A DNA stretch of 59,289 bases, the filler included, from Dimargaris cristalligena (Eukaryota), in assembly GCA_003614675.1 (NCBI GenBank). It is 8 parts of 8 records of this genome, joined end to end, with 100 filler letters (N's around TTAATTAATTAA, not from the genome) between each part and the next. Parts side by side here need not be neighbours in the genome. Positions count along the whole stretch, not along the records: positions 22,325 to 29,654 come from ML003426.1; 7 more parts are not named here. One strand, written 5' to 3'. Positions 6,889 to 55,247 of this stretch are shown here, in pieces. Position numbers and translations under genes: made by a program. Position 1 is the first letter of the stretch. Each line of letters opens with the position of its first letter. The notes below the pieces were generated by a model. The model was not told the DNA's origin, ran no database searches, and was given only the letters and a program-made list of their open reading frames with translations.

Positions 6889-7356
6889 ATGCCTTTAGGT
6901 CGGTATAGCTCACTATTTGCCTCTGTTCGCCTGCTCCGTGCCACTTCTACTGTTTTTCAACCCGCTTCTACTACCCGCTATCCGCCCTTTTCTTTAACCA
7001 CCCGGTTGGTCAGGCAAATCCCGTTGATTTCGGCTCCCGTATCTACGCTGCTGCCCTCCATTACTACTACTACTAACCCTTTCCGCTCGCTCACCACCAC
7101 CAGCACCGCCCAAGCCCCGCACCGCATCAACATGCTGGACTTCTTCAAGAACGAAATCGCCCAAACCCTGGCCGGCTTCTCCGGTTTGGAGCCCCAGGTC
7201 ATTTTCAATGCCATCGACACCCCCAAGGTGGCCGATCACGGTGATTTGGCCGTGGCCGTACCCCGGCTGCGTCTCCCGGGCAAGCCGGTCGAGATCGCCA
7301 AGGACTGGGTTGCCCGGTTCGAACCCACCGAATACGTCACCAAGTGCTCCCACATT
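6889..7356 (+). CDS. RARS: Arginyl-tRNA synthetase, N-terminal part, truncated by contig end
   Basis: MLDFFKNEIAQTLA...DHGDLAVAVPRLRLPGKPVEIAKDW matches the fungal ArgRS N-terminal domain. In-frame ATGs at 6889 and 7132. Confidence 0.85.
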
Positions 7357-7456
7357 NNNNNNNNNNNNNNNNNNNNNNNNNNNNNNNNNNNNNNNNNNNN
7401 TTAATTAATTAANNNNNNNNNNNNNNNNNNNNNNNNNNNNNNNNNNNNNNNNNNNN
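7357..7456. other. Artificial contig linker (N44-TTAATTAATTAA-N44)
   Basis: Identical 100-nt spacer with stops in all six frames; recurs seven times. Confidence 0.99.
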
Positions 7457-7574
7457 AGGGGCTCATTCACTCGTCAGGGGCATACTTCCGATAAGTGCGA
7501 AAAATAGATAAAAAATAAAAGTAGGTAAAAAATGTGGTAAGTTCACCACAGTATCTATCCCTATTAGACCTTAT

Positions 7575-8095
7575 AGTGCCATATTGACCTTCCCATGGTC
7601 ACCCCCGGTACTATGGGATCCTCCTATATCATATAACTCTTCCCCTTCTAGACTCCACCTCTTTGCACTAATCACTTAATTGCTGATCTAAGACTCTTCT
7701 GGTTACCATTAGAGTCTTCTAGGTCCTCATGGCCATCTGGCTGGTTTATTCATCATATTAGTCTTAGTAGTACCCTTCCCCCAGGGCCTCCCTCTGGAGT
7801 TGTCCCTGTGTATATATAACCAGGCCCCATTGGGTCCAGTTAGATTTGGAAGCTTATTCTTACCTACCTGGTTTACCCCAATAAACTCTATATATACTCA
7901 CCCCCTTATACTAACCCATAAGTGTACCCACTGCAGATCCCTTGCATAATTAATTGCCTAGGCCTTTATTAGTTAGTATTGTACCCCATACCTAATGCTA
8001 GTAGCTGCTTAGCTGAGTCTAAAGCCCCACCTCCCATTAGAAGCCTATCCCCAGGGCTCTTGATGGACTAAGAGTAGTAAACCTAGGTAACAATA
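7575..8095. repeat. Decayed interspersed repeat, uninterrupted copy of the element at ~45500-46845
   Basis: Colinear similarity, e.g. TCCCATGGT..., CAATAAACTCTATATAT(A/G)CTCACCCCC, CTCTTGATGGACTAAGAGT. CpG-poor; differences are mostly transitions. Confidence 0.8.
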
Positions 8096-14805: not shown

Positions 14806-14905
14806 NNNNNNNNNNNNNNNNNNNNNNNNNNNNNNNNNNNNNNNNNNNNTTAATTAATTAANNNNNNNNNNNNNNNNNNNNNNNNNNNNNNNNNNNNNNN
14901 NNNNN
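14806..14905. other. Artificial contig linker
   Basis: N44-TTAATTAATTAA-N44. Confidence 0.99.
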
Positions 14906-17031: not shown

Positions 17032-20000
17032 ATGTCCTCCGCCGAGCAAAAGCACATCCGAGAGCGCTTGGACTACTATTACCGAGCCTCCCAGGCCATT
17101 ATCCTGAGCCGCCAAAACCCCAACACTGGTCTCATTCCCGCTTCCGTGGCCGTTACCACGCATGGCGACTATCGTGACGCTTGGGTCAGGTAAATAACGC
17201 CTTGTGCTACATTCCACTATATTTGCCCAGTTTATCCTCAGTAACAATACTGCGTGGGGTATCACCGCGGTACATTGTCCAATTCCCTCATCGCTGTTCA
17301 GGTCATTTACATCCAATTTATCTGTTTTATATTCCACGCCACCAGAGATAATGTGTACTCCATCATGAGCGTTTTTGGTCTGGCTCTGGCCTACCGTCGT
17401 ATCGACGACGAAATGGGCCGGGCTTATGAGTTAGAGCACGCCACTATTAAGTTGATGCGCGGCCTACTCTTCAGCATGATGCGCCAGTCCGGTAAGGTGG
17501 AGACCTTCAAGTACACCCTGGCCCTGACCGACTCCCTCCACGCCAAGTACAACACCAACACTGGTGATACCGTGGTGGGGGACAACGAGTGGGGTCATTT
17601 GCAAGTGGACGCCACCAGTTTATTCCTACTGATGCTGGCCCAGATGACTGCCGCTGGGTTCCAGATTATCTACACCCTCGATGAAGTGGACTTTATCCAA
17701 AATCTGGTCTTCTATGTGGAGCGGGCCTACCGTACCCCCGACTACGGTATTTGGGAACGGGGTAACAAGGTCAACCATGGTGAACCCGAACTCAATTCCT
17801 CGTCCATCGGAATCGTCGTGGCTGCTCTCCAGGCCATCAGCGGGCTCAACCTGTTTGGCCCCCGTGGCGGCCCATCCTCCGTGATCCACGTTCTTCCCGA
17901 CGAAGTCACTCGCAATTCCATGATTCTGCACTCCGCCCTTCCTCGTGAATCGTTCTCTAAAGAAATCGATTCGGCCCTTTTGCCCGTAATTGGGTACCCC
18001 GCTTATGCCGTAGCCGACGAAGAAGTGATCAAAAAGACCCGTCAGGAGATTATAACCAAGCTACGTGGCAAGTACGGCTGCAAACGGTTCCTGCGTGATG
18101 GTCATCAGGCGGTCCTTGAAGACACCTCCCGGTTGTACTACGACCCGCAGGAGTTGCGGATGTTCGAAAACATTGAGTGCGAGTGGCCCCTCTTCTTCAC
18201 TTACTTTATCCTGGACGGTCTATTCCGCGGGGATACGGCCATGGTCGAAGAGTACCGTGATGCCATCCGTCCCCTATTAATCGATTCCACCACCCTGACC
18301 GATTTCCAGGATATGCCCAGCATAACCACCCCTATTATTACCAAGACTCCCCCCCGCAACTCCCCCAAGTCCCCGCGACTGACCCGGGAGACCTTCCACT
18401 TGATTCCAGAAATCTATTATGTACCGCAGGAATCGGTCGAAGCCGAAAAGGCCAACCCCCACTCGCAGGTCCGCCTTCCCAACGACAACGTACCCCTGGT
18501 CTGGGCCAACTCCCTGTACATGCTGGGCAATTTGGTCCACGAGAAACTTGTATCCACCGCCGAACTGGACCCCCTGGGTCGCCGCTTCTATGCCAGCCGG
18601 GCCGACAACCGGGATACGGTGGTCCAAATCTCCCTACTTACTGAGGACGAGTCCCTGCAGGCCAAACTGGCCACCTTCGGCCTCGAAACTCAGACCCTAG
18701 ATCAAATGGGTAGTGTGACCATCTGTCCGCCCTCAGCCCTCCAGGAGGTGTATACTACCTTGGGCATGAATGAAAAGCTGGGCCTTTCCGGTCGTCCCCC
18801 GCGTCCGGTGGGCACCTTGAGTACCTGTCGCCTCTACCGGGTCCAGGGTCGTCTCTACGCATTTGTGCCCCATTTCCTGGACAAGCAGGAGTTCTACTTG
18901 TCGTCTGACAATGATTACCTGGTCTCCGTCATCGAGAGCCAGCTTTCCTTCGTTCAGCGCCACTGGACTTTCTCAGGCCGCCCGACCTTGGTCATTTTAC
19001 TGACCCACCAAATGTTCAACCAGAGCTACCCCCAGTCGTGGATGGCCAACCGCATCCCTACCGCAGTCGATGACTCCTCCAGCGGAAAACCCGGCCAAAG
19101 TGACCGCCTATTCACCGGGAGCCAGCGCCACTTGTTGCACTTTATCATGAATCTACGCAGCGGCAGGTGCTGCAACGGCACGGTGCGCGTGCGCTTGGGT
19201 AACTTGGGCGAGATGGTCCCCACTAGCTCCATCGAGAGCCTGGATTTTCTGGTCAACAAGAACGACGTGGACTGGCTGGGTGTCCTCCGTGGCTGCCCGA
19301 CCATTTCGCGATCTGCCAGCAGTTCGCGTCTGCGTGAATTCGGCAAGTCCCCCGCCGCCACTCCCGGTCGTGGTCTGCGTCGTAATGCCTCGTTCTTTAA
19401 TACCAATTCGGGCCTCAAGACTCCGGTTGAGAAGAAGGAGGCGGATGGCTATTTCCCGCTGGCCCAAGAACTGCGTAAGCGCTTCAACTTTAAGCTTCTC
19501 GACCCCGAGTTCCCTAGCGAATTGTCGGTCTCAAGCACCGCTGCTCCCGCCACAAACTCGGCCGTGGCCTTGGCCGATGACCTGATGGCCTTGGGATTAG
19601 AACCCGCTCCCAGTATGAGTATCGACGAGGTTGACTATGCGCAGTCCTCCCCCCCGACCGCCAGCTCCCCTAGTTTAGAGAATCTCTCTTTGACCCTGGG
19701 CGATCCATCAGAAGTGCCACAGGCCATTGGCATGCTCAGCGTGGCCAATAACCTCCTGGATCAGATGGATTTGCTTCACTACCTCTACTCCTGTCATGGT
19801 CTCAAGTACTACGTGGAGGCCTTTGACGCCACGGTTCACGAACTCATCGAGGAGGTGTATATGAAGGCCCAGTACCTCAAACTCTGGGGGGTTGTGCGCC
19901 AGGCCGCCGGTGTTCTAGGTAAGGTGGTCAACAACCTCCTGACCATCTGTATCACCGACTTGGTGGTGCGTCTGAAACAGGTGTCCATTGGCCATGGCGA

Positions 20001-21588
20001 TAACGAGACTACCATTTCCTGTCCCGTGCCTCCGGATGCCATCAACGATATTTTGACCAACTGCTGTAACGAGGACGTCCGTGAGATCCCCCTGGTCCAA
20101 GAGGTCATCATCAATTTGGCTGACCTCATCCAGGCGAAGCCCAACATGTTCGATGGACTTATGAGACTGCGCACCCACAATATCATCATTGCTTTGCGCG
20201 AAGAAATCTCCCGCCTGCGCGGCTGCGATGAGGAAGAGGCCCTGGATACCCTTCTGGAAATGAGTCCTTTCGAACTCAAGATTCTTATCACCACTGTCCT
20301 GAGTGGCCCTAGCCTGAGCAAAACCAATATTCATAGTTTGGTACACGCCGAAGGTAAAGCAACGACCAGCGATACGAAGGTGCGGGGTTGGCGCAATGTG
20401 AATGTTAACGCCGTGAGCGGGGATCGGTCCGATATCTTTTCCAGTGATAAAAATGAACTGAGCATTTCGGTTCAGTCAGCTGGCTTCCAGTCAGGTAACT
20501 TTGCACGGATTGATATTAACCGAGTGAATATCCCAGTAACCAACCGGGGTATCAACCTAGTGGTGGTAGACCCAGTCGAGAGTGTTGTGGCCGAGACTAT
20601 TTCTTTTGATACCCACTTGTCCGATGCCGATTCACAAGAACTAGCTGAATTTTTGACCAACATCGAACCCCACATGGTTGTGATATTGGTGGTGAAGGAC
20701 GACTGTGCCGAACGCTTCACCCCCGAAGCCCGCCAGGCCTGTGAACTTATTGGCAGCCGGGCCGTGCACAAGGTAGGCTACCGCGACTCGTGGTGCCTAG
20801 TGGGGTACAAGGGGGCCCGCCCCGACCATGTGGCTGAGCTACACCGTGTCGCTACCCAGGGTCCCACCGATATGCTCCACATTCGCTACCCTTTGGCTGA
20901 GCTGCGCCAATTGGCCCAGCAAACGACTACGGCGACGCTACCAAATCCCCTCACTAAGAGCGCTGCTGGGGGCCGCTGGCTGCGGAGACGCAAGAATGAT
21001 GGTGCGCTCAACCGGGTGCCATCTGATTTTTATCCTCGCGTGTGGAAAGTCCTTGCCAAGTGCTACGGTATCATGGTGCAGAATGAGTTCCTGCCCCGCG
21101 ACCCTCTGGTGTACGAAAAGACCCCAGAGGAACCCAATTTCGCATACCGTGTGGAATCCTTCCTGGGCGTGACCCAGGACCCTGCTGAGCGCCAAATCGC
21201 AGTTGAATGTCTTATGACCCTGTCGTTCCTCCAGCATACCCACCCTGACGCGGGCGCAGGCCTGCGCCCTCAAGACCAGGGCGAGGAGGTCATCAATTTA
21301 ACCCAGATCTTCAAAGATGCCTTGGCGGCATTTTGGCAGCAGTGGTGCCAGAAACACGCTAATGGAGCTGACCAATCGGCTTCGTTGGCCGAGCTTCCCT
21401 ATGACGACCGGCTCGCTCGTAGCCTCTTTTACGATTTGCCCACTACGGCCGAATTCGGCACTGTGTACTACCTAGCTCGTAGCGCACTGACCCATATCGA
21501 TGCTGGCCAAGCTGAGTCATACGCTCGCGAATGTGTGCTGCACTACGGTCAGTGGGAGGGCGAGAGCTTTCCCATCTGCTTTTCTTAA
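17032..21588 (+). CDS. Phosphorylase kinase regulatory subunit alpha/beta-like protein (GH15-like domain) with an ILEI/PANDER-like domain; exons 17032-17189 and 17346-21588
   Basis: ILSRQNPNTGLIPAS, AWVRDNVYSI (across the intron), WGHLQVDATSLFLLMLAQMT, AYRTPDYGIWERG, LPRES.SKEID, GKYGCKRFLRDGHQ, FENIECEWPLF, WLRRRK.DGALNRVP..FY, P..RQ..VE.L are PHKA/PHKB family motifs. Confidence 0.92.
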
Positions 21589-22224: not shown

Positions 22225-22324
22225 NNNNNNNNNNNNNNNNNNNNNNNNNNNNNNNNNNNNNNNNNNNNTTAATTAATTAANNNNNNNNNNNNNNNNNNNN
22301 NNNNNNNNNNNNNNNNNNNNNNNN
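22225..22324. other. Artificial contig linker
   Basis: N44-TTAATTAATTAA-N44. Confidence 0.99.
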
Positions 22325-22590
22325 ACCACCCCCCTCCACCAGCCCTCCACTCAACACCTCCAAATCGGGGTCGTTTAAGCCATTTCTGGATCATCCTTCA
22401 ATTCGAAGGCGCGTCAGTCAAGGGTGAGAAGTGCAAGGTGCGTGTTAGTGTAGCCTGAAGGAGGTGGACCTTGCATACCGTTACCTGAAGTGCAGTTCTT
22501 CGGAGTGCCCTCCCCACAGTAGTCCCAGCTTGCTGGGATGCGAAGCACCCGAAGGGCTACGAGGAGAGGTCACGTAGATGAACGGAACGT

Positions 22591-22650
22591 AAGGTATAAG
22601 GTTTGCAACTTGCAGGCCCACCGGTCAGGCGAAACGTGCGCACCTGGAAC
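22591..22650 (+). repeat. Left arm of inverted repeat flanking the array
   Basis: AAGGTATAAGGTTTGCAACTTGCAGG (22591-22616) is the exact reverse complement of 29628-29653; imperfect similarity continues about 35 bp inward. Confidence 0.9.
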
Positions 22651-22654
22651 GTCG

Positions 22655-25600
22655 TAAGCGAAGCGACCTCGTGCATAGGAGACCAGCAGCCAGGATCGGT
22701 AGTAAGTGAAGAGGGGGTGGATAGTGTAGGACTGAAGCCCTTGGGGGCCCCTTTAGGGGAGGCGTAAGGACGGAGCGTGCCCCCTCGTAACGACCTCGTG
22801 CAAGTGATCAACATGGAGTAGGGCAGTCATGAATGAACATGAGACACCCACGAGGTGGCTCCCTGCAACGATCATCAGTAAGCAAAGCGACATACTGGCT
22901 GAGACAGCCACAGCTGGCTCAATGCAGCGATAATTATTAGGAATTGGCAGGGTTCACGTAATAGTTACTCAGCAACATGAGACGGCCATAGTCGGCTCCT
23001 TCTAGCGGTGGTACTAAGCGAAGCGACCTCGTGCAGCTTGAATTTAAATAATCAGCAGGGTTGACGTTATCGTCATGAACATTACCAAAGGAGCCAGCTG
23101 TGGCTGTCTCAAGCAGCTATAATTATTAGATTACTTACCCGAGACACCCACGAGGTGGCTCCTAGTAACGGCGGTATTAAGCGAAGCGACACCTTGCAAC
23201 TCGAGTCAATAGTCATCATTATCAACGTCACCCTCATCACTCAACGGTGCGACCATGGTTTAAATGACTCCAAGGGAGCCAGCTGTGGCTGTCTCAACAA
23301 TTAGTAGTGAGCTTAGCGACTCCGTTATTCAACCTGCAGCATCAGTTTAAATGTGAGACCTCATCACTATTGTCATTCTAACCATCACCAGTAAGCGAAG
23401 CAACCCGATTCATCCAACCGTTCAACATTGAGTTATAATGTTCAACAATGGGGCGGTGATGGTAAGCGAAGCGACCTGTGCATCATGAATTAGTAATACA
23501 CCTGATACACCCACGAGGTGTCTCATCTGTGAGACCTTCAGGATTAGCCAGGAGCCAGCTGTGGCTGTCTTAATAAATTCATGTTCAACCGTGCAGCCTT
23601 CATTTAAATGAAAGATGGCCACCGTCATCATAAGGGGTTAGCCTAGGGAGCCAGCTGTGGCTGTCTCAACACCGTAAGTTCCTATTCAACCTGCAGCGAT
23701 GATCTGTAATAAACTACCTGAGACGGCCACAGGCGGCTCAACAGTATAGAACTCGGTAAGCGAAGCGACACGTGCAACATGAGCTTATAGGAGGGAATAA
23801 TATACGAATGAACGATGCCCTGAAGCTTCAGAGTTGAGAACGAGAAAATGACGTCAAGCGGAGCGACACTACATCAAGAGTTACCCAGCTGCAACCCTGA
23901 CTATCAATGATTCACCTGTAACGCATCACCGTCACCATCAACAGGTAGCAAGAGGAGCCAGCGGGGTTCACATCATGGGGTCACCGTGCAGCAAGGATTG
24001 CTAATAAGCTACCCGAGACGGCCACAGGCGGCTCAATGTAGCGGGGGTAGTTCATAAGCATAAAACGATGCTGCGACGGCCACAGGCGGCGCCCTCTCGT
24101 TAATTCAGTAAGCGAAGCGACACCTTGCTCATGCAACCTGCAGCCGTCATCATCAATAAGCGACAGGTCCCTCCTGAGTCATTTCAGTACAACCATCAAC
24201 ATCATGTAGCAATAGGGAGCCAGCTGTGGCTGTCTCAACCGTGCAGCGATGATTAGTAAGTGACCTGAGACGGCCACAGTCGGCTCATTCAATCGGTGAT
24301 ATTAAGCGGAGCGACTCGGGTATCATCACGTTCCACCTGCAGCCAGGATTATGAATCAACATAATCGTCATCATCGTCAACATGATCACCACCCTCAACA
24401 TCAATCGTAACCCTCACCATCAACACCTTCAGGTTCAACCTTCAAAGATGATTAATCAACCTGAGACACTCACGAGGTGACTCCATTCGATCGTACTCAA
24501 TAAGCGAAGCGACTCGTTCACCAAGAGTTACCAACCGTGCAGCATTGATTGTGAATCACCTGAGACGGACATATCTAACGGATTCAGTAAGCGAAGCGAC
24601 CTCGTGCAGATCCACCAATGGAATCATCATAAACGTCATCCACCTCGACAAGTTAGCCAGCGGGGTTGACATAATGAGGGTCACCCATGCAGCAAGGAAC
24701 TATAACTTAGTACGATTAGACGAGCAGCCAGTAGCTCCGCAATGAGACCGTCATCAACAGGGCTTATTCAACCGTTATCTAAATGAGTGACTCCCTAGTG
24801 GTGATATTCTAAACCTAAGGGTCCCAAGAGGTCATCGAACTCAGTAAGCGAAGCGACATCGTGCAACATGGGTCAGTTATCCTCCTCATCATCAACAATA
24901 AGCGAAGCGACCTCGTGCACATTCAACCTGCAGCTTTAATTTAAATATGAGACCTGAAACGAATATGAATAGAAAGAAGAGCCAGCTGTGGCTGTCTCAA
25001 CACCAGTAAGTTCAACCGTGCAGCGGTGATCTTTAATGCTACCCGAGACACCCACGAGGTGGCTCCTTCCATTCATCATAATAAGCGAAGCGACATCTTG
25101 TTCATCAACCTGCAGTACTAATCTAACTGAGTAACCTGAGACGGCTATAATCATCTTTATTATAACCGTCACCCACTTCGACAGGGGAGCCGCCTAGGCC
25201 GTCTCAACGTTCAGCCTTGATTAGTAAAGGTACCTGATAAGCGAAGCGACCTTTATTCACGATCGACCTACAACCCTGGTCTATAATCCACCTGAGACAC
25301 CCACGAGGTGGCTCCCTTCAGCACTAGTTGATAAGCGAAGCGACCCCTTGCTCATTCCACCTTCAACCATAATCTTTAACATGTTCCACCCGAGACGGCC
25401 ACAGACGGCTCCCTAGATTCCTGATGTTAAGCGAAGCCCCATCGTGTTCATCAACCTGCAGCCCTGATTAATAAGCGGAGCGACATCGTGCAACGAAGGG
25501 TGTCACCATCAACATCGCTAAACATTAGCACCATCATGAGTAATCGACTTAGCTTAATTCAACGGTGCAGCCATGATATTTAATTAAACCTGAGACGGCC

Positions 25601-28600
25601 ACAGTCGGCTCAATGGTCCACTGATTAGTAAGCGAAGCGACCCGGAGTACAATTCACTGCAGCACTAGTTTATAACCAACCCTCATCAACATCATAATCA
25701 CCAAGGGAGCCAGCTGTGGCTGTCTTAGCGAGTTCAGTGTTGATAGGCGACACAATTCATTCAACAGTGCAGCGGTGATCTAAATGGACAACAAGTCCAG
25801 CAGTGATTCATAAAGCAAGAGGAGCCAACGGAGTCGCCATCATCAAGCGAAGCGACCTCGTACGTCATGGGTCAGCAGGTGAAGTCCAGCGAAGGAGTGA
25901 TCGATCCCCTGAGGCTTCAGGGGTGAGAGAACGAAAGAGCGTTACTAAGCGAAGCGACACCATGATCAACCGGTCAGTCAACATTGTCATCAGTAGGCGA
26001 AGCGCCTTGTGAGTCACCCAACGGTGCAGCATCAATTAGTAATCAACCTGAGACAGCCACAGCTGGCTCAATCTATTAGTGCTACTAAGCGAAGCGACTC
26101 TGATTCAGTCAACGATGCAATCATGATCTAAATGAGCAAGAGGAGCCAGCTGTGGCTGTCTCGAGCAGCAAGGGCTACTATAACTCAGCTACAAAGATTA
26201 AGCAGCAGGGATGGTTATTAATTAGTATGAGACGGCCACAGGCGGCTCCCTTGATTGAGTCTTGGTAAGCGAAGCGACCCTGAGCTCATGATACCGAGCA
26301 GCACTGATTTATAGACTCGACCTGAGACACCCACGAGGTGGCTCCCTTCAGCGATGGTGGTGAGCGACTTCATATTCAATCGTGCAGCATTAATTTAAAT
26401 CAACTACCTGAGACGGCCACAGGCGGCTCCTTCGATGGTAACTGGTAAGCGAAGCGACCCAGAGTTCAATTCAACCGTGCAGCACTAATCTAAATGATCA
26501 CCGAAGGGAGCCAGCTGTGGCTGTCTCAACAGGTTCAGCTACGGTTATGAATGAATCACCTTTATCTCACCATGAACCTGCTTACCATAGCAGCTGAGAA
26601 TGTCAATCATAACCCATCACCACATGACCATAGTCATGACCGTCACAAAAGAGCCAGCTGTGGCTGTCTCACGATGCAGCATTAATTGGTAAGGATTCAA
26701 CAAGGATTATGGAGGTCAACATGACAACCCCCAGAACCGACGTCAACATTACCCAGGGAGCCAGCTGTGACTGTCTCAACACCAATGACCGTTCAACAAT
26801 AATCTACTCGAGACGGCCACAGGCGGCTCATAACGCTCATCATCAACGTAAGCGAAGCGACCTGTGCAAGACTTATTAACCCGAGCAACCGTGATCTATA
26901 GTGTTACCTGAGACACCCACAAGGTGGCTCCCTTGATTAGATATGATAAGCGAAGCGACCCTATTCAAATGAGCGTCATCGGTATCAGAACCATCAGCCT
27001 TGATCAACGAGTACAGCGGTGATGTTGAGCGAAGCGACAGTTCAGATGAACCGGCGGAATCGTTATCCTAACCGTCATGACCAACATCCTCATCACCGTC
27101 ATTAGTAAGCGAAGCGTCATCTAGGTCAAAACCAATGCAGCTGTAATTGTTAATAAACCTGAGACGGCCACAGGCGGCTCCACTCATCAGGGTTAGTAAG
27201 CGAAGCGACTCGTGCACCATCAACCTGGAGAATAGTGTATGAGTGAACGATGCCCTGAGACCTCAGGGTTGAGTGAAAGAACGTCATTGTCAATATCATC
27301 ACCCTCACCGTCGTATTAACTCACCCTCAACATTGTCATCAAGAGGTATCAACCGAAAGGAGCCAGCTGTGGCTGTCTCAAGCAGTCCAACATTGATCAT
27401 CAAGGACATACCGATCAACAGTCAAGTCAACCCCTCAGCCATAACCGTCATCAAGGACTTCAATATAATCCACTCGACCGTCAACAATACAACCAGGATC
27501 AAATCCAAGGATAGTAATCAGATCCATCAGCCTGAACGTCAACGCCGACGTTAACAAGAGCAGCACAAACCTGTAGACCACCAGCGTAAACGACGGGAAG
27601 AGTAACCAGATCGACGTCACCAGATACTCCAGCAACGTCATAACCGATAGGAAGGACATCGCCAAGGGAGCCAGCTGTGGCTGTCTCAACAGGTTCAATT
27701 GGTGAGCGAAGCGACATCATGAACATCATCGTCATCACCACCACCGTTATCCTCAACATCAACGTCACCATCATCACCATCAACCCGAGACGGCCATAGT
27801 CGGCTCTATTCATTAGTGATGTTAAGCGAAGCGACCCGTGAGTCAGTCCAGCGGTGCAACCCAATCAAAGATTATTAATGATAAGCGAAGCGCCTCTTAC
27901 ATCCTGAGTCAGTCGTCACCATCATGATCAACAAGGAGCCAGCTGTGGCTGTCTCACGATCAACCTAAATTGTAAGGTCGTTAAAAAGGAGCCGCCTGTG
28001 GCCGTCTCAACATTCAACAGAAGCACCATTCCGCAGGATAATTATATGATAAAGAGCTCCGCAGGAGTCATCTATGATAACTTACGTGATTCATCAGCCT
28101 GCAACATCGATCGAAAGGTCTACCTGAGACAGCCACAGGTGGCTCCATCCAGTTCAATTGGTAAGCGAAGCGACATCGTATATCAAGGGTCAGTTACCGT
28201 GCAACCATGATCTAAAGGAGACCCTTACAGCAGGATGATAAGCGAAGCGACATCGATTCACATTCAACGGTGCAGCTCTAGTCTAAGTTCCACACCATAA
28301 CTCATCCTAACCGTCCTCATCAGTAAGCGAAGCGACATCATATTCATCAGTTCAACAACGGTCTAAATGTACTACCTGAGATACACACGAGATGATACTG
28401 GTAAGCAAAGCGACTCGTGCAGCGTTAGCCTCTAGGAGGATGAGTGGACGAACGAGCGATGCCCTGAGACTTCGGGGTTGAGGGAGTGAGGTAACGTCTA
28501 CAAGCGAAGTGACCTTGAGTATCTAGGGTTAACAATGCAGCAGGGGTCTATAGGTGTGTCGCAAACGGAGTGCGCAGGAATAGTGGTAAGGAGTGGAGGA

Positions 28601-29570
28601 GTGTCGTTAAGCGAAGCGACACCTTATTCATTATACCTGCAGCCGCTATCTGTAAGATCAACCGTATAGCGAGCATTCATAGTGCTACCCGAGACACCCA
28701 CGAGGTGGCTCATACAGCGGGGATTAATAGTCAATTCGCACAGGGAGCCAGCTGTGGCTGTCTCTGCAACAACAACTGGTAGCTACTCGAGACGGCCACA
28801 GGCGGCTCAACCCAGAGGAGGATACCAGACTAGCAAGGTCAACACGATCATTAATAAGCGAAGCTACTTAACAACGGGAGCCAGCTGTGGCTTCTCAACA
28901 GTGCAGCATGAATTATTAGTTAGCCACCTGAGACGGCCACAGGCAGCTCAATATACTAATTAATTGGTATCAGCATTAAATTCGTCATCAACAGAAGAGC
29001 CGGCTGTGGCCGTCTCAGGTTGGTTAATTAAGTCCTGGCTGATTGAGCTAACCTCAGCTACCTCCCAGCAGAGGTACTTTATAAGCGAAGCGACCCACCG
29101 AAGAGTCATTCAACCGAGCAACCCTGATTTAAAATAACTCGAGACGGCCATAGGCGGCTCAACCTGAATGAACTTCATAACCGACCTCTTGTTAACTGAG
29201 ACAGCCACAGCTGGCTCCATTTAATAGACTTGATAAGCGAAGCGACCGGGTGAAGGATCACGTGATGTGGCTAAAGAACTAGTAGGGGCTAGATGCAGCA
29301 GCAATCATAAAAGATGCGCAGGGCTAGAGATCACGATCAATTTAAGTCTACTTGAGACAGCCATAGCTGGCTCAATCGTTAATTACTCAAGGGTTAATCA
29401 GGTCCCGAGACGGCCACAGCCGGCTCCATAGCCACGATCAATTCTAGGATTCAGCAGGGATTAAGATTCAGTGATGAAGCAGAGTGCTCATCAGGTGAGC
29501 CGACTATGGCCGTCTCAAGCTATCAACGGTTAATATAGGGAGGCTACTCGAGACAGCCACAGCTGGCTCC
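22655..29570 (+). repeat. Modular hairpin-box array: box A GAGAC(G/A)(G/C)CCA..GGCTC (both orientations), box B TAAGCGAAGCGAC (+ strand only), box C CAACC(G)TGCAGC, with variable linkers; non-coding
   Basis: By eye roughly 40 box B, 50+ box A and 25+ box C copies. No credible ORF. Confidence 0.95.
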
Positions 29571-29593
29571 CTATACAAGGTCGTTCCGGTGTC

Positions 29594-29653
29594 TGTTCCG
29601 GGGTGCACGCTTCGCCCAACCGGTCCCCCTGCAAGTTGCAAACCTTATACCTT
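29594..29653 (-). repeat. Right arm of inverted repeat flanking the array, running into the contig end
   Basis: CCTGCAAGTTGCAAACCTTATACCTT at 29628-29653. Confidence 0.9.
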
Positions 29654-29654
29654 C

Positions 29655-29754
29655 NNNNNNNNNNNNNNNNNNNNNNNNNNNNNNNNNNNNNNNNNNNNTT
29701 AATTAATTAANNNNNNNNNNNNNNNNNNNNNNNNNNNNNNNNNNNNNNNNNNNN
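29655..29754. other. Artificial contig linker
   Basis: N44-TTAATTAATTAA-N44. Confidence 0.99.
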
Positions 29755-37068: not shown

Positions 37069-37168
37069 NNNNNNNNNNNNNNNNNNNNNNNNNNNNNNNN
37101 NNNNNNNNNNNNTTAATTAATTAANNNNNNNNNNNNNNNNNNNNNNNNNNNNNNNNNNNNNNNNNNNN
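37069..37168. other. Artificial contig linker
   Basis: N44-TTAATTAATTAA-N44. Confidence 0.99.
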
Positions 37169-39063: not shown

Positions 39064-41009
39064 ATATGGTACCATCGTATTTGGTTAGAGGACTTGATTT
39101 GGCTGACAATCACTTTAAGGGTAGCTGCCTAACCACCTTTGTTAAATCAATGTTGTGGCGGATGTATTGCCAAATACCAGGTAGCTGAAGTAAACCGGTA
39201 CATTCTATTTATACCATACATTGCATTTATTGTGTGGTTAGAAACCGGTGTCCCAGCGAATAGGAGGGGGAGCACCGGGGAAAGGACAAGTCCGATAGTC
39301 AACAGTTCATCAGTACGGGGTACAATATCATTAGTTACAAGTAGGATAAATGTAATTACAAGGGGGGAGACCCTTGGAGTAGAGTGGCACAGGGTCAGTC
39401 CGTTGGCTATTCTCCACAACTTTGCAGTAACAGTCATTTGAATGATTGTATTCATTCACACCTGGATAAATTTAGCCCTCCTAAGATGATGTCTAAGCAA
39501 ACCGGTTTTTTAATATCCCATCTTCTACGGATGATGGAAATCGCAGATATCCGCGTCATTTACAGGTCCATTACTAGATTATAGGGTACGTGCCTTCTAC
39601 TCCCTTCGTATTGGAACGGGTATTGTACATCCTTCAAACAACTGGCCTGTCGTCACGGGCGGCCTTAACTTCCGCCCTCAAAGCTATCTCGGACATACAC
39701 TTCCGCGCCGCTCCATGGAACTTTATTATATTAACGAGGGTGAAGGACTGTAGAGCGGTGTATTCGTATCCCAATGAGACTATGCGGTCGAAGAATGGTT
39801 TCGAGCCGTATAGATGAGGCGACGAGAAGCTCGAGCCGACGGAAGTATATGGGTTCTACTGCTGCAGAATGGCCTTTGCCCATATCTCTAGACGATATTA
39901 TAAGCTATTGCAGGATATGGGAAGACCGTCCATTTACCCTACGCCTGAGTCGATTAATTCACCCCCCGGGTTCCCAATCTGTTAGGGATGCAAGTCTAAG
40001 TCAGCTACTTCGGCGTTTGGGGGTGACGCTCGTATCTTCCAGGGGCCATGGGTCAGGGGAATATCCTATACAAGAAGATTGGCTCGATTCTCTCAAATCA
40101 CTCGGTTGCCCCGGATTTGGTGCAGGAAGATGCAGCAGGGTGCACAGATTGCCCGTTTGGGGGGCGTGAGGGATATCGAATACCTCAATCTCCCACCGGG
40201 AGGTTGCGCACTTTATTCTATTCTAGTATTGTTAGATGTAAAAGGGCCGAATAATGCTCACGGCGAGGCGCTAGACTAAGCAAAGGTAAACAATGGCCGG
40301 TTAGCGGAAACACCAGTAGGGAAGAAATGAGCAGAGCACGCATTTCCGGCCAATCAAAGCCAAGGTCGGTGGCAGTAACGGTCACGGAAGGTACCGCCCA
40401 GGGTACATTGGGAAGGCCGAATCAAACGGCGTAGCTAAACGGGTTGACTCTATGTGGGAGTATTCAATAGCAATGAAGGGGGATGGCATAGGCACGTTAT
40501 GGTGCCTCTAGGATTCCTGAGGGAAATGCAGCCGGTCAGGAGGACCGCTAGTTGGGTACTGACGACATGCACATAACCACCCCCCGTCTATTCATCCTTG
40601 CTGGGGAGATTATACACTGCTGTCGCCGCAATCCTCGCAGGCGTGGCGCTCATGTATATAAAAGGGCGAAGGGGGAAGGGCACGATCAACTTTCCCCTTG
40701 CTAAACCCCGTCTCCCTGATTGCCGTCGAGTTTACTTATTCCTGCAACTACCCTTCCCTCCTTCATTTCCTCGTTTGCCCGCCATTACACTCTATACCTC
40801 CCTGGTTACTTGAAATATAACCAAATCCTCCGCTTCGGAGACCCGCACCGCCTTTTCTACTCGTTATTCACTACTCCTGCGATAATTTTGTCCAATTCTC
40901 TGGTACTCGGCGGCCGTTTCTACCCGCTACCCTCTATATCATCGGATATTCACAATTTTGCCTTGACCTTCCCTCTCCCTACTTGTACAGCTCCCAATTC
41001 CCCTTCGAT

Positions 41010-44000
41010 ATGACCCCCTCCACTGAACTATCCCCGACCACGGTCCTCGGCTACCACCGCCTGATCGCTGAGGGTTACCAAGACTACGAGGCCCTCCCGC
41101 TTTTCAAACCGGATAACCCCCAATCCGGTATTTTCGGCGTATCCCATCCACTGTCGACCATGCTCGACACTTCTGCCGCCCAACTGGACCCGTCCCTGTC
41201 GCTGGACGTGATCCTACACGCCGCTTGGGTGGTTCTGCTGGCCCGCTATAGTGAGACCCCGGCTGTAGTAGTGGGTACAATCCGAGCCGATCCAGCCGAT
41301 GGCCCCCTCGAAAAGGCCGCCGGCCGAGTGGCCGCTCTGGTCCATCGCTACGAGCCCGACATGCCCGTATCGGCCTGGCTGGCCACTATTCGGGCCGCCC
41401 TGGATTCGGATGAATCCCAGGTAGATTCGGCCCAGCCGGATCCCAGCATTGATAGGCCAGCCCAACACGCTCTGTTCGAGTCAGCCATCGTTACCCAACC
41501 TTTGGGCCCGGCTATGTGTAAATCGCAGTCACTTCTTGTGGAGGATGATGCCGACGCTCCTTCCATATATGGTCCGGTCGATCTCGTCCAAGAGTATTCC
41601 TGGGGCCAGGTGGCTGAAGCGCTGGCTCATCATCATCAAGTGACACTGTTGGTTTCCCTGAGAAAGGGTGACCCTGAGGGGACTTCCCCATACCTCCGAT
41701 TACACTTTGACGGCCGCACGGTGGCCACCCAGGCCGCCCAGCAATTGGCCATTCAGCTGGGTACTCTGATGGAGCACCTGATTCGGGTGTCGGCTGACCC
41801 GGCCGAAGAAGCTGTAACTCTGGCGGAGCTGCAGTGGCTCGCCCCTAACCAACGCGAGGCGATTATCCATAAATTAAGCCAATCGCCCGACCCCACCGTT
41901 GCGCCATTTGTGCCAGTGGCCCACAAAGTAGCGGAGTTCGCCCGCTCCCACCCCACTCAGGCCGCCCAACTGTACCAGGGCAACGCCCAGTCCTTCGCCG
42001 AGCTCAACCACTGGGCCAACGTGGTGGCCCATTGCCTCCGCACCCAACACAGCATTGGCCCGGAAGACCGGGTGGCCCTCTTCGTCGAAAAGTCCACAAT
42101 AGTGGTGGTGGGCATGCTGGGTATCCTAAAGGCCGGGGCCGCTTTCATTCCTATCGATACCCAATTCCCAGCGGACCGGGTGGAGTATATTCTCCAAGAC
42201 AGTGCGGCGCAGGTAGTGCTCACTACCCGCTTATCCGCACCGGCCTTGGATTCCCTCCATGCGGAGGGGTCTACTTTGGTGTTCATTGACGAGCTGCCCG
42301 ATATTTCGCTAAGCTCAGAAACCGGCGAGCTCTACCCGGATCCTTCTGAAGAACCAGCCCCCGACCATTTGGCTTACATGATCTACACATCCGGCACCAC
42401 GGGCCGCCCCAAGGGGGTTCTGGTTGAACACGCCGGGTTGGCTAGCGTGGTAACCGTGCCCGAGCGGCGCGACCACATCGAGCCGGGGGTCTGTGTTTTC
42501 CAGTCCTTCTCGATTGCGTTTGACGCATTCCTGTACGAGGCATTCGTCACCCTATGTAACGGAGGCACCCTGGTCCTCCCTGGCGAGGACCCGCTGGCCG
42601 ACTTGGCTCAGGCCCATATTTTGACCGCTACCCCGTCTTTTTTGGCCATGGTGGACCCGGACCAATTCCCGCATCTTCGCCAGATTATCAGCGTGGGGGA
42701 AGCCTGTCCGCCTGGCCTCCGGGCCCGTTGGGTCGGTCGCTGCTTCATGGGCAACGGTTATGGGCCAACCGAAGCCACCGTCTTTACCCACTTCGATATT
42801 CTGGAGGAATCCAACCCCATCACCATTGGACGACCGGTTCGAGGCGTCACCTCTTACCTAGTAGACCACCAGCGCCAACTGGTTCCCCTGGGCGTGGTGG
42901 GGGAGCTGTTAATCGGCGGGGTAGGTGTGGCACGGGGTTACAATAACCTGCCCGAACAAAGTGAGAGCAAATTTATCACCAACCCGTTTGGCCCCGGGCG
43001 GGTTTACTGCACGGGCGATTTGGCACGCTGGCTACCCAACGGCCGCCTGGAATTCATTGGGCGAGTAGACCACCAGGTGAAACTTAACGGCTTCCGTATC
43101 GAGTTGGGCGAAATCGAAGCCCAGCTGGGTGGCTATCCGGGGGTTCAGCAGGCCGCGGTCATTGTGCAATCCGATCGCCTGGTCGGGTACTATAGCCCGG
43201 CCTCTATCGAGGTGGAGTCTATTAGAACCCACTTGAAAAAGACCCTACCCCGCTACATGGTGCCCACCTATCTGGTGCCCGTGGTGGTCTTTGCCCTAAC
43301 CAGCAGTGCTAAGATTGATCGCCGCCGGTTACCGCCCGTACCCGAGCTCCAGGCTGCTGTCCCCGAAGAGGGCCCGGAGCCAGGTGCTAAGAGTAAATAT
43401 AACCCCAAAACACCCGAGGAAGCCACCCTGCGCCAGGTGTGGGCCCAGGTCCTGCGCCGACCCATTCACCACATTAGCCCCACGGACCACTTCTTCCAGA
43501 TTGGGGGTGATTCTATTGTGGCTATTCTCGCCGTCGCGCAGTGTCGCCAGCATGGCTATAAACTCACTGTACCCCTTATCTTCGATCACCCAACTCTGGT
43601 GCGCATGGCCCGCCAGCTGGTGCCCCTGGCCTCGCTGGCTGAAATGGCTGTCGTAGCGTACCCCCAAGGGCCAGTGGAGGGGCCCATTGCCCTTACTCCT
43701 ATCCAGCGCTGGTTCTTTAACTGGCCCGTTCAGCATCGGGACCATTTCAACCAGTCCTTTAACCTGTCCGTTCACCATGAGTTGGATCCCCAGCTCCTTT
43801 CCCATGCCCTGACGCGGTTAGCCGAGCACCACGATATTCTCCGTTGTCGTTACCGTCAGGGGTCCGAGGGGTGGGAACAGTCGATTCCGCCATTGGCCGA
43901 CGATCCGGACCAGTGGGTGCACTTCATCTCTGAGGACAATATCAATTCCGCCGGGGTAGTGACCTGCCTGCAGTCTCTCGCGACCGGCATCACCATCGAT

Positions 44001-44480
44001 AACGGTCCCCTCTGGGCAGTTGCCCTCCTGGCGTCATCCGAGCCGACGGACCATACCTGGGCGCATGTTACTGTGCACCACTTAGTGATTGACCTGGTGT
44101 CGTGGCGTATCCTAATTGAGGACCTTAATACGCTATTATCGGGCGGTAGTTTGCCGGAGAAGACCCTCTCTTTCCAACAATGGGCCTCCGCCCTTGGGGA
44201 TCACGCTGGCCAGCTACGGGCCGATGAATGGCCTGACCAGCACTTCTCCCCCACCGACTACGTCCCATCCCCCCTTACGGGTGAACTTCATACCTCCGCC
44301 TACGAGCGCCGATCCATTGCCTGCACCCTATCGACCCATGTCACTGGGCCTCTCACCGGTGCACTGACCCGTCAGTGGCGGGTTACCACGCGGGACATGG
44401 TGCTAGCTGCCTTTGCCCTGGCCTACTGCCAAGTCTTTCATGTTACCTCGCTCGCTCTCCATATGGAAGGCCACGGATGA
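41010..44480 (+). CDS. Non-ribosomal peptide synthetase, intronless: partial C-like, adenylation, PCP, epimerisation domain (ends at contig edge)
   Basis: A motifs AYMIYTSGTTGRPKGV, FDAF, NGYGPTE, GELLIGG.GVARGY, Y.TGDL, GRVDHQVKLNGFRIELGEIE; PCP FFQIGGDSI; E motifs LTPIQRWF, HHLVIDLVSWRIL, MEGHG. Confidence 0.95.
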   Translation: MTPSTELSPTTVLGYHRLIAEGYQDYEALPLFKPDNPQSGIFGVSHPLSTMLDTSAAQLDPSLSLDVILHAAWVVLLARYSETPAVVVGTIRADPADGPLEKAAGRVAALVHRYEPDMPVSAWLATIRAALDSDESQVDSAQPDPSIDRPAQHALFESAIVTQPLGPAMCKSQSLLVEDDADAPSIYGPVDLVQEYSWGQVAEALAHHHQVTLLVSLRKGDPEGTSPYLRLHFDGRTVATQAAQQLAIQLGTLMEHLIRVSADPAEEAVTLAELQWLAPNQREAIIHKLSQSPDPTVAPFVPVAHKVAEFARSHPTQAAQLYQGNAQSFAELNHWANVVAHCLRTQHSIGPEDRVALFVEKSTIVVVGMLGILKAGAAFIPIDTQFPADRVEYILQDSAAQVVLTTRLSAPALDSLHAEGSTLVFIDELPDISLSSETGELYPDPSEEPAPDHLAYMIYTSGTTGRPKGVLVEHAGLASVVTVPERRDHIEPGVCVFQSFSIAFDAFLYEAFVTLCNGGTLVLPGEDPLADLAQAHILTATPSFLAMVDPDQFPHLRQIISVGEACPPGLRARWVGRCFMGNGYGPTEATVFTHFDILEESNPITIGRPVRGVTSYLVDHQRQLVPLGVVGELLIGGVGVARGYNNLPEQSESKFITNPFGPGRVYCTGDLARWLPNGRLEFIGRVDHQVKLNGFRIELGEIEAQLGGYPGVQQAAVIVQSDRLVGYYSPASIEVESIRTHLKKTLPRYMVPTYLVPVVVFALTSSAKIDRRRLPPVPELQAAVPEEGPEPGAKSKYNPKTPEEATLRQVWAQVLRRPIHHISPTDHFFQIGGDSIVAILAVAQCRQHGYKLTVPLIFDHPTLVRMARQLVPLASLAEMAVVAYPQGPVEGPIALTPIQRWFFNWPVQHRDHFNQSFNLSVHHELDPQLLSHALTRLAEHHDILRCRYRQGSEGWEQSIPPLADDPDQWVHFISEDNINSAGVVTCLQSLATGITIDNGPLWAVALLASSEPTDHTWAHVTVHHLVIDLVSWRILIEDLNTLLSGGSLPEKTLSFQQWASALGDHAGQLRADEWPDQHFSPTDYVPSPLTGELHTSAYERRSIACTLSTHVTGPLTGALTRQWRVTTRDMVLAAFALAYCQVFHVTSLALHMEGHG

Positions 44481-44580
44481 NNNNNNNNNNNNNNNNNNNN
44501 NNNNNNNNNNNNNNNNNNNNNNNNTTAATTAATTAANNNNNNNNNNNNNNNNNNNNNNNNNNNNNNNNNNNNNNNNNNNN
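44481..44580. other. Artificial contig linker
   Basis: N44-TTAATTAATTAA-N44. Confidence 0.99.
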
Positions 44581-51888: not shown

Positions 51889-51988
51889 NNNNNNNNNNNN
51901 NNNNNNNNNNNNNNNNNNNNNNNNNNNNNNNNTTAATTAATTAANNNNNNNNNNNNNNNNNNNNNNNNNNNNNNNNNNNNNNNNNNNN
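51889..51988. other. Artificial contig linker
   Basis: N44-TTAATTAATTAA-N44. Confidence 0.99.
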
Positions 51989-54326: not shown

Positions 54327-55247
54327 TTATTCGTCAAAGAGGGTGCCTTTGGGAAGGTCCCACAGATTATGGTTATCGACCTGTCGCGCTTTGGTGCCAA
54401 TAGTGGTGATTTTTTGGTACTGGGCGTCAGTGAGCTTAAAGTCGCTTTTGAAGTTGTTTTCGATACGGGAGGGGGTCACCGATTTCGGGATCACCGAGGT
54501 CCCACGCTGAAGGCCCCAGGCGAGTATCACCTGGGCAGGGGTGTGGCCGGTTTCCTCAGCGACTTCCTTAACCGCGGGGTCCTCCAGAACACTGGGTTTA
54601 ACAGTTGATCCAAGCGGACAATACGCCGTGACGTGAATGCCTTTGGCCGTGCAGACATCAATTAGCTTCCGATTCGGGTTGTAGGGGTGGACCTCTACTT
54701 GGTTCACCGCAGGGGGGATCTCGGCCACTTCCAGCAGGGTGGTGAGTCGGGGGATATTGAAGTTGGACACCCCGATGTTGCGGACTTTGCCGTCTCGAAC
54801 GAGCTTTTCCATGGCCCTCCACGTGTCCACAATGGAAACGTCGTCCAGCGCGGGCTTACCGTTGGGAAGCTGGGCCGCCGTTTCTAACTTGCCCCCGTCC
54901 TTCTTGAAGGCCACGGGCCAGTGAATCAGATACAAGTCGAGGTAATCGAGTCCCAGCTTGCGCAGAGTTTCGTCGCAGGCCGGACCAACATCCTCGGGGT
55001 TGTGTTCGGTGTTCCACAGTTTGGAGGTGACCCAAATCTGATCACGGGGCACCTCGCTTTCGCGAAGGGCCTCGCCCACCTCTTCCTGGTTTCGGTAGAT
55101 CGCCGCACAGTCGATGTGCCGGTAGCCGATGCGCAAGGCCTCTTTAACAGCCACCTTCACCTTCTCCGGCTCTGAGCGCCACGTTCCAAATCCAACAGTA
55201 GGAATTTTAGCCCCGGAGTTTAGCGTAAATGTGCTATGGGTGGACAT
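54327..55247 (-). CDS. Aldo-keto reductase (Gcy1/Ypr1/AKR1A-like), copy 1
   Basis: GFGTW, GYRHIDCA.IY, SKLWN, LDLYLIHWP, IGVSNF, VNQVEVHPY, VIPKS. Confidence 0.96.
   Translation of the reverse strand: MSTHSTFTLNSGAKIPTVGFGTWRSEPEKVKVAVKEALRIGYRHIDCAAIYRNQEEVGEALRESEVPRDQIWVTSKLWNTEHNPEDVGPACDETLRKLGLDYLDLYLIHWPVAFKKDGGKLETAAQLPNGKPALDDVSIVDTWRAMEKLVRDGKVRNIGVSNFNIPRLTTLLEVAEIPPAVNQVEVHPYNPNRKLIDVCTAKGIHVTAYCPLGSTVKPSVLEDPAVKEVAEETGHTPAQVILAWGLQRGTSVIPKSVTPSRIENNFKSDFKLTDAQYQKITTIGTKARQVDNHNLWDLPKGTLFDE

Follow-up and report, generated by a model that had tools for sequence, protein, structure and literature searches.

Irregular strand-polar array of hairpin, spacer and box modules on a gene-less contig in a Dimargaris cristalligena assembly

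Short conserved boxes and hairpins set in variable non-coding DNA are known from several systems. Satellite DNA with a conserved protein-binding box is exemplified by the CENP-B box of primate alpha satellite and by dyad-symmetry satellites. Mobile hairpins occur in organelles, namely, the double-hairpin elements in the mitochondrial DNA of Allomyces and other fungi and the GC clusters of yeast mitochondria; repetitive hairpin-forming elements have reportedly been described in sponge mitochondrial DNA. In bacteria, repetitive extragenic palindromes (REP) and bacterial interspersed mosaic elements (BIME) are extragenic palindromes in alternating orientation with short linker motifs between them. 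The minicircles of Trypanosoma brucei carry guide-RNA cassettes of about 110 bp between 18-bp inverted repeats. Bipartite signals with a spacer of fixed length and free sequence are represented by the histone pre-mRNA stem-loop with its downstream element, by V(D)J signals, and by integron attC sites. The present analysis concerns an array of short boxes at positions 22655–29570 of a 59,289-base stretch (the window) from the assembly GCA_003614675.1 of Dimargaris cristalligena. The window consists of eight contigs of 7301–7356 nucleotides (nt) joined end to end by N44-TTAATTAATTAA-N44, and the array lies on the fourth of them. Its grammar matches no described element that we searched or know of; as a general kind, non-coding repeats that bear hairpins and conserved boxes are known.

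22325–29654, no strand assigned: whole array-bearing contig (the fourth), 7330 nt, 49.2% G+C.
22655–29570, plus strand: strand-polar array with 43 boxes B, 19 boxes C and 4 modules D on the plus strand only, and 50 hairpin boxes A in both orientations.
26410–26458, plus strand: example of the bipartite module, consisting of hairpin A1, a 16-nt spacer of free sequence, and TAAGCGAAGCGAC.
26446–26458, plus strand: example of box B, in which the pentamer AAGCG is directly repeated, (AAGCG)2, and followed by AC; a T precedes it, and the box is written (T)AAGCGAAGCGAC.

The array consists of about 45 short cassettes strung irregularly in one direction and punctuated by one bipartite cis-module, in which hairpin A is followed at a set distance by box B. 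The hairpin is separated from B by 16–19 nt in 20 of the 31 plus-oriented A copies, and by 16–17 nt in 19 of those 20. By simple arithmetic (43 B in 6916 nt), about 0.8 of 31 copies would be expected to have B in a 4-nt window by chance. A spacer of 16–18 nt also separates B from the second hairpin, module D, in three of the four D copies, and one inverted A (27668) has B 15 nt downstream. In other members of the same DNA family, met in the sequencing runs X3 and X4 only, five hairpin-to-B spacers measure 16–17 nt and one D-to-B spacer measures 18 nt; the letters of these spacers are unrelated. The spacer of the module keeps its length, and its sequence is free.

The boxes described in the initial annotation of this DNA were found where it had placed them, at counts far beyond chance. 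Box B (TAAGCGAAGCGAC, at most one mismatch) gave 39 matches, all on the plus strand and all within 22655–29246, with 0.05 expected from shuffles. The pattern of box A, GAGACNNCCAY(N4-5)GGCTC, gave 35 + 7 exact matches, all within 22841–29569, with 0.00 expected. In the other seven contigs (52 kb), no box was found save one B-like match with two mismatches at position 603. With looser matching, 31 A copies lie on the plus strand and 19 on the minus strand, whereas B, C and D are never found on the minus strand within the array; the strand rule noted earlier for A and B holds. The boxes cover just 1822 of the 6916 nt of the array, so that the contig cannot be said to be built from them, as had been proposed. 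The bases directly before B weakly follow T-R-N-T, as read by eye from the aligned units. D has four copies, at 23814, 25903, 27249 and 28458, three of which fold at −3.7 to −7.5 kcal/mol (z −2.3 to −3.6), and the lead-in CCTGAGAC is common to D and A.

26470–26483, plus strand: example of box C (TTCAACCGTGCAGC), which follows B at 9–16 nt in roughly one unit in four, with a weaker ATGATCTAAAT-like stretch behind it.
27249–27273, plus strand: example of module D (GATGCCCTGAGACCTCAGGGTTGAG), the second hairpin, with purine-rich surroundings.

Hairpin A falls into three subtypes with one common interrupted fold, in which an A/G mismatch separates three pairs from four further pairs that close a loop of 4–5 nt.

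26410–26429, plus strand: example of subtype A1 (GAGACGGCCACAGGCGGCTC), 16 plus and 3 minus copies; DNA fold −5.2 kcal/mol, z −2.5.
26050–26069, plus strand: example of subtype A2 (GAGACAGCCACAGCTGGCTC), 6 plus and 15 minus copies; DNA fold −5.8 kcal/mol, z −2.9.
25294–25314, plus strand: example of subtype A3 (GAGACACCCACGAGGTGGCTC), 21 nt, 9 copies on the plus strand only; DNA fold −5.4 kcal/mol, z −3.1.

Of the 315 cells of the hairpin in 45 distinct copies, 94.6% are paired, and three of its seven pairs vary on both sides. The pair 10–20 is never unpaired (26 distinct copies have A-T and 19 have G-C), the pair 11–19 is G-C, C-G or G-T, and the pair 6–24 switches to C-G in one copy. Neither the paired share nor the covariation score was reached by any of 500 shuffles. 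Hairpin A is maintained by compensatory changes; since the copies are kin, this covariation shows constraint on pairing and not a number of independent events. According to the RNAalifold analysis of 20 aligned units, hairpin A is the sole conserved structure, and B with its flanks folds no better than shuffles (−1.1 kcal/mol, z −0.47). The occurrence of A in both orientations and of B, C and D in one is more easily reconciled with a symmetric structure in DNA next to polar sites than with one folded RNA.

The initial annotation had described A>B>C>A as the usual order, with a period of 86–100 bp, which proved overstated. B-to-B intervals range from 44 to 506 nt (median 128), with 12 of 42 at 80–110 nt, and there is only a handful of full C>A>B cycles. 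The Tandem Repeats Finder program reported no array with a period near 90–100 in 22325–29654 at a score of at least 30. Among the 20 aligned units, mean pairwise identity is 0.85 for A and 0.91 for B, as against 0.38 for the A-to-B linker and 0.36 for the sequence after B. The boxes are well conserved and the linkers are not, although the linkers are not wholly unrelated: they retain a trace of common descent (identity 0.39 vs 0.26 in shuffled sequences). The array is not a regular satellite, since unit length is not constant and there is no likeness of whole units. It shares with box-bearing satellites its non-coding nature, its multiple copies, a short box conserved in diverged units, and a dyad able to form a hairpin or cruciform. 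It differs from them in its variable unit length and in the lack of whole-unit homogenisation, as well as in having two elements at a fixed mutual distance and hairpins pointing both ways. The argument that a plain satellite would decay evenly along its unit, so that conservation of the boxes alone calls for selection or a box-level process, is borne out by the identity contrast and by the compensatory changes. The annotation had named equally conserved linkers, a described repeat family, or missing reads as grounds for giving up its view; the linkers are less conserved than the boxes, no described family was matched, and the sequence is present in six public runs.

The same data bear on the explanation that the array is an old repeat without function. 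Regular units of about 97 nt would have decayed, with nothing reading the boxes; self-templated repair or biased gene conversion would have preserved the palindrome, and B would owe its survival to chance or conversion. The units can still be aligned, the linkers bear their trace of homology, and decayed and truncated A copies are present; moreover, palindromes can restore the complementarity of their own arms and so mimic compensatory change. However, self-repair leaves unexplained the near-identity of about 50 copies to three subtype sequences, as well as the 0.91 identity of the non-palindromic B, and the distance of 16–17 nt was retained though B-to-B distances changed tenfold. This explanation is considered distinctly unlikely.

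As a tentative explanation, which is possible rather than probable, we propose that the array is natural, gene-less, non-coding multi-copy DNA in which the hairpin, spacer and box form a repeated protein recognition site acting on DNA. One dedicated protein would read the module on DNA, with one part on the extruded or melted hairpin and another on the adjacent (AAGCG)2 repeat. Such a two-part contact would explain why the distance is kept and the intervening sequence is not. The array could then be a multi-site platform on high-copy non-coding DNA, for chromosome or plasmid maintenance, replication or heterochromatin-type binding, and selection or conversion would hold the sites while the DNA between them drifts and gains or loses bases. 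A protein reader, action on DNA rather than RNA, and any cellular role are what we infer from the module; the DNA reading is preferred over RNA because the symmetric hairpin occurs in both orientations and there is no further conserved RNA fold. In architecture alone, the module resembles the bipartite signals named above: two conserved elements, one of them a hairpin, with the spacer length kept, placed at the boundaries of variable segments. There is no sequence likeness to them, B never inverts with A, unlike a recombination signal, and the cassettes carry no genes, unlike those of integrons. We know of no machinery that goes with this module.

Several observations weigh against the reading of the module as a protein site on DNA. 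The module is not obligatory: 11 of the 31 plus-oriented A copies have no B at the set distance, and upstream of about 20 of the 43 B there is no intact hairpin. Degraded A copies are present (e.g., at 23504, 24463 and 28376), and many A copies toward the right end (28900–29570) stand without B. These copies without B and the irregular spacing are unlike known protein-binding satellites. Furthermore, two assemblies and the runs of three organism labels are the only places in which the family was met, so an origin tied to one laboratory pipeline is possible. If it is functional, the module would be a new bipartite nucleic-acid signal (hairpin, measured spacer, pentamer repeat) with no catalogued relative, and it would point to a reading protein in poorly studied fungi or in something living with them.

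The strict polarity of B, C and D (43, 19 and 4 copies on the plus strand, none on the minus strand) keeps alive an RNA-processing alternative. A long plus-strand precursor would be cut at a signal measured from both the hairpin and B, giving short RNAs that run from near B into hairpin A and carry the variable parts as cargo; the likeness would be to the histone pre-mRNA stem-loop with its purine-rich downstream element or to a CRISPR repeat. The spacer of fixed length and free sequence agrees with this, as do the G-T pairs in the sense strand of the hairpin (five at pair 11–19, two at pair 12–18). The plus strand also has a compositional skew, A>T and C>G, which persists in the sequence beyond the boxes (A-T skew +0.13 vs −0.01 in the other contigs). 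On the other side, 19 of the 50 hairpins are inverted and would have a different loop and mismatch in plus-strand RNA, and RNAalifold indicated no conserved structure past hairpin A. A search of Rfam 15 gave no family at E < 0.1 on the array contig, rRNA included; the best match, mir-1756 (25.7 bits vs a gathering score of 100), was produced by the pairing of plus- and minus-oriented A. The faint homology of the linkers makes them look like drifted copies and not like acquired guides. In the test for a CRISPR array, A was found in both orientations, the spacing was irregular and the linkers were faintly homologous, none of which fits such an array, and no cas genes were found on the contig, where the longest open frame has 121 codons and Pfam gave no family. 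An RNA-processing array is considered rather unlikely.

Pairs of plus- and minus-oriented A flank about a dozen cassettes of about 110–135 nt, and as single strands these cassettes fold with z −4.1 to −5.8; in many units the inverted partner is missing. The minus-oriented A2 usually lies downstream of an A/B pair on the plus strand, after a variable A+C-rich stretch. A further inverted repeat has its arms near the two ends of the contig.

26046–26166, plus strand: example of an inverted-repeat-flanked cassette, plus-oriented A2, B, and minus-oriented A2; the single strand forms a 20-bp stem with a loop of about 75 nt (−31.4 kcal/mol, z −5.8).
22325–22654, plus strand: left non-array region, which carries the left inverted-repeat arm.
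22591–22644, plus strand: left arm (54 nt) of the near-terminal inverted repeat, with 85% complementarity to 29600–29653.
29600–29653, minus strand: right arm of the near-terminal inverted repeat; a single base separates it from the contig end.
27380–27667, no strand assigned: longest box-free insert, 288 nt, A+C-rich on the plus strand; its minus strand gives an open frame of 121 codons, from which public gene models were derived.

The right arm holds the only B-like motif in minus orientation, as read by eye. The eight-contig make-up of the window, the hairpin-to-B spacing of 16–17 nt, the three covarying subtypes, module D, and this near-terminal inverted repeat had not been noticed in the initial annotation. 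As a side observation, a degenerate (CATCATCAC)n run of 7.6 copies lies inside the array at 27715–27782, and A+C-rich stretches with 3-nt periodicity, akin to this run, precede many of the inverted A2 hairpins.

These arrangements could be read as a cassette array built by recombination or transposition. The hairpin module would be the site of an HUH-type or rolling-circle enzyme (cf. Helitrons, IS200/IS605 and bacterial REP/BIME) or of a recombinase (cf. integron attC sites), unequal cassettes would be added or shuffled at the hairpin, and the whole would be a non-autonomous element bounded by inverted repeats. Intervals of 44–506 nt between identical sites are as expected for cassette arrays and unlike satellites. 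The two orientations of A with the flanked cassettes, the 54-nt inverted repeat near both ends with its right arm at the contig end, and the weak T-R-N-T just before B point the same way. So does the multi-copy family, in which the left end region is repeated too: the left non-array region has a summed depth of about 7000–8000 in X3/X4, as against about 500–2250 for exact pieces of the contig. In comparison with Helitron and other HUH ends, the hairpin stands at a fixed 16–17 nt before a conserved junction, which need not be the end of an element. In comparison with terminal-inverted-repeat transposons, the arms are 54 nt and 85% complementary, and while the right one is at the contig end, the left one lies 266 nt inside. 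No transposase, Rep/helicase or integrase was found on the contig among the open frames and in Pfam, and the cassettes are too short for genes. No target-site duplication is visible at the A-flanked cassettes (flanks ACCT vs AACA). In addition, B never inverts, so the segments between inverted A copies do not flip. With imperfect palindromes both ways, short non-palindromic motifs and a loose grammar, the array resembles REP/BIME, which are read by dedicated proteins; it differs in its association with a eukaryote and in the number of palindromes, about 50 over 7 kb instead of a few between genes, and its composite module has no match in 185,579 prokaryote genomes. An array built by such an enzyme is considered unlikely.

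The occurrence of the array elsewhere was analyzed in several collections. The composite pattern of A, spacer and B gave no match in Joint Genome Institute (JGI) metagenome contigs, IMG/VR, or GTDB (the prokaryote genomes just mentioned), and BLASTN found no match in PLSDB plasmids or phage records. The A2 20-mer gave three single matches in metagenome contigs, none in viral contigs, and four single matches in GTDB genomes; all seven loci have one A and no B and are therefore chance matches. A limited full-text search of the literature for the box strings found no description. By contrast with these collections, the contig sequence is near unchanged (0.77–0.97 of sampled words) in six public runs with three organism labels from three studies, and one of these runs may be the source of the window itself. 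No RNA run is among the public runs listed with the contig sequence, and the runs X7–X10 (from the sample of X1 or the study of X2) contain next to none of the sampled words, which, as word sampling, is not evidence of absence. The contigs of four runs contain long exact pieces with 0–1 differences together with many related pieces (233, 306, 2771 and 5116 aligned). The array contig is a member of a multi-copy DNA family. Transitions make up about 0.76–0.84 of the differences among family copies, as against 0.5 for random change (simple arithmetic). The depth of exact-piece contigs is 4–13 in X1, 5.6–9.5 in X2, 520–1192 in X3 and 1697–2249 in X4; these are contig depths relative to one another and not copy numbers. 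The X3:X4 depth ratio is about 0.5 for the array contig and ranges from about 0.2 to more than 100 for other family members (6254.7 vs 1612.3; 1435.3 vs 7264.9; 5934 vs 38.6).

Such values raise the question of location, and one answer would be a high-copy extrachromosomal or organellar DNA, i.e., small molecules comparable to kinetoplastid minicircles or amplified mitochondrial subgenomic DNA. This answer can be combined with any of the functional readings. It agrees with a stand-alone gene-less contig of 7.3 kb here and 8.3 kb in another assembly, with the depths of 520–2249 in X3/X4 as against 4–13 in X1/X2, and with X3:X4 ratios that vary among members. Its presence in assemblies of unrelated fungi would likewise be expected of a small DNA of very high abundance. 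Similarity to the T. brucei minicircles is seen in those units that form cassettes of about 110–135 nt with variable interiors between inverted repeats, and in many sequence classes of sample-dependent abundance. The array differs in its 7.3-kb length and fungal context and in the absence of a conserved minicircle block, and the polar box B has no counterpart there; RNA editing is, to our knowledge, not known in this fungal context. The 12-mer of the kinetoplast conserved sequence block 3 (CSB-3) gave at up to two mismatches 10 matches in the window, none of them in 22325–29654, and the total is at the chance level (6.6 expected).

The array shares with the mobile hairpins of organelles the short near-invariant hairpin boxes in non-coding DNA, both orientations and variable surroundings. 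Those elements, however, are single scattered insertions among genes in A+T-rich genomes, whereas the array is a gene-less 6.9 kb with 49% G+C. Mitochondrial double-hairpin elements have two hairpins, and the array has one, tied to a polar non-palindromic box at a set distance. The idea of organellar DNA overrun by mobile hairpins, put forward in the initial annotation, finds no support on the contig, which has no tRNA, rRNA or organellar open frame, and in place of a scatter of hairpins the boxes follow a spacing rule. The absence of tRNA, rRNA and Pfam families holds for this contig alone, so that a gene-less organelle molecule is still possible. For the extrachromosomal alternative as a whole, the lack of organellar genes, the G+C content, the missing CSB-3 and contig ends without a circle-type overlap are unfavourable. 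Furthermore, depth does not equal copy number, and amplified libraries would swing for any DNA: if the libraries of the holders were amplified, the depth swings need no special explanation. The paper on the published genomes of D. cristalligena and Syncephalis pseudoplumigaleata states that multiple displacement amplification was used for both (PMC6784888). We rate extrachromosomal or organellar DNA as improbable, on a par with the recombination-built array.

The initial annotation took the contig as DNA of the window organism, which is now doubtful. The public model P0122, one of the two gene models that phmmer returned for the 121-codon minus-strand frame and named [quoted passage not shown] and located on an 8300-nt contig, is found on the array contig in three pieces (81/81, 54/54 and 28/29 residues; 163/164 in total). 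Judging from this match, the same array appears, essentially base for base, in an assembly labelled as a fungus of another subphylum, and its belonging to the window organism is for that reason in question. Near-identity of fast-drifting non-coding DNA across subphyla is not compatible with vertical inheritance and indicates a common source. This source could be one labelled organism contaminating the others, a third organism, or a carried-over template. According to the paper on both species, they were sequenced in one single-cell pipeline, library crosstalk was a concern, and the host was not the same for both (Cokeromyces recurvatus and Mucor moelleri; PMC6784888). Since the hosts differ, a common host fungus was rejected as the shared source: the host alone does not explain the sharing. 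A second paper states that samples of Dimargaritales gave ribosomal DNA of the host and not of the parasite (PMC9866270).

In this connection, the array may be thought not to be a natural feature at all. It could be an assembly chimera, or else a template that arose in, or was carried along by, an amplification or sequencing pipeline and passed from library to library. The presence of the same sequence in assemblies of two fungi from different subphyla and in runs of three labels, its absence from every other collection searched, and the crosstalk concern stated in the paper on both species (PMC6784888) agree with this. However, the long exact pieces in contigs of four runs exclude an assembly chimera. 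The three covarying subtypes, the partial conservation of boxes C and E, the differing degrees of decay among copies and the mild transition excess speak for long natural evolution rather than in-vitro synthesis, and the appearance is unlike primer-derived synthesis by a high-fidelity polymerase. In addition, spread across libraries would explain where the array is found, not what it is. An artefact of this kind is very improbable. In practical terms, the contig is present in public assemblies of two fungi from different subphyla, with spurious “hypothetical protein” models, and should not serve as evidence on either genome before its source is found.

There is a slim chance that the array represents a high-copy gene-less DNA family in or with early-diverging mycoparasitic fungi, composed of inverted-repeat mini-cassettes with enzyme-read boundary signals and variable cargo (e.g., small RNAs). 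If true, this would make it a eukaryotic counterpart of the kinetoplastid guide-RNA minicircles or of integron attC arrays. The four explanations offered in the initial annotation were organellar mobile hairpins, recombination or replication sites, a processed small-RNA array, and a centromere-type protein-binding array; none of them is established.

The gene-free character claimed for the array was confirmed. The longest open frame has 121 codons, each frame contains 115–180 stops, Pfam gave no match among eight open frames of the array contig, and no tRNA genes were found on it. An exhaustive phmmer search with the 121-codon minus-strand frame returned two gene models of the same sequence and one low-complexity protein, and a plus-strand frame had no matches; protein coding was rejected on these grounds. 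B-to-B distances are a multiple of three in 14 of 42 cases, as by chance. A Kex2-type repeat-peptide precursor, in which B would read K-R-S-D in one frame, was discarded, since stops occur in every unit and the frame is not conserved. Tiny spliceosomal introns (GTAAGCG ... TTCAAC ... TGCAG) were also rejected, as G precedes TAAGCG in just 9 of the 20 aligned units and no frame opens. Bacterial-type promoters and terminators were found at 10 vs 8.4 and 8 vs 5.8 expected, respectively, and were not retained. Two spurious-looking gene models of public protein sets have been called on the array at 27813–26779 of the window, minus strand, namely, a 104-residue open reading frame and a 162-residue three-exon model that bears the name of a S. 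pseudoplumigaleata hypothetical protein, both without homologues.

At the left end of the contig, a structured RNA was rejected because the folds are not better than shuffles (z −0.14 and −1.21). A telomere at this C-rich end was likewise rejected, as there is no repeat past 2.6 copies of an 11-mer and nothing alike at the other contig ends.

The contigs of the window are merely concatenated, so the neighbouring genes do not place the array contig, and adjacency across the joints has no biological meaning.

7357–7456, 14806–14905, 22225–22324, 29655–29754, 37069–37168, 44481–44580 and 51889–51988: contig joiners (N runs).

The other contigs carry ordinary fungal genes, encoding a Bem1-type SH3-PX-PB1 protein, a nonribosomal peptide synthetase (NRPS) module, two aldo-keto reductases, and a GH15/phosphorylase-kinase-like protein. 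The nearest named relatives of the Bem1-like protein are a Dimargaris cristalligena model (84%), Tieghemiomyces parasiticus (70%) and D. xerosporica (60%), and by sequence the neighbouring contigs look Dimargaritales-like; a protein-atlas comparison placed this protein no more closely than as a fungal Bem1. The NRPS module (adenylation, carrier, condensation) is located at 40983–44480 on the plus strand and continues past the contig end. This is consistent with the NRPS-rich genomes reported for Dimargaritales (PMC9866270). An intron-free open reading frame of 1444 residues at 17254–21588, plus strand, combines a region similar to GH15 and the phosphorylase-kinase regulatory subunit with an ILEI (FAM3-type) domain and a phosphorylase b kinase C-terminal domain, which is an unusual combination. 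The two aldo-keto reductase frames, of 306 residues each, are located at 54327–55247 and 56747–57667 on the minus strand with 1.5 kb between them; their Pfam scores are near-equal, and they probably arose by a recent tandem duplication.

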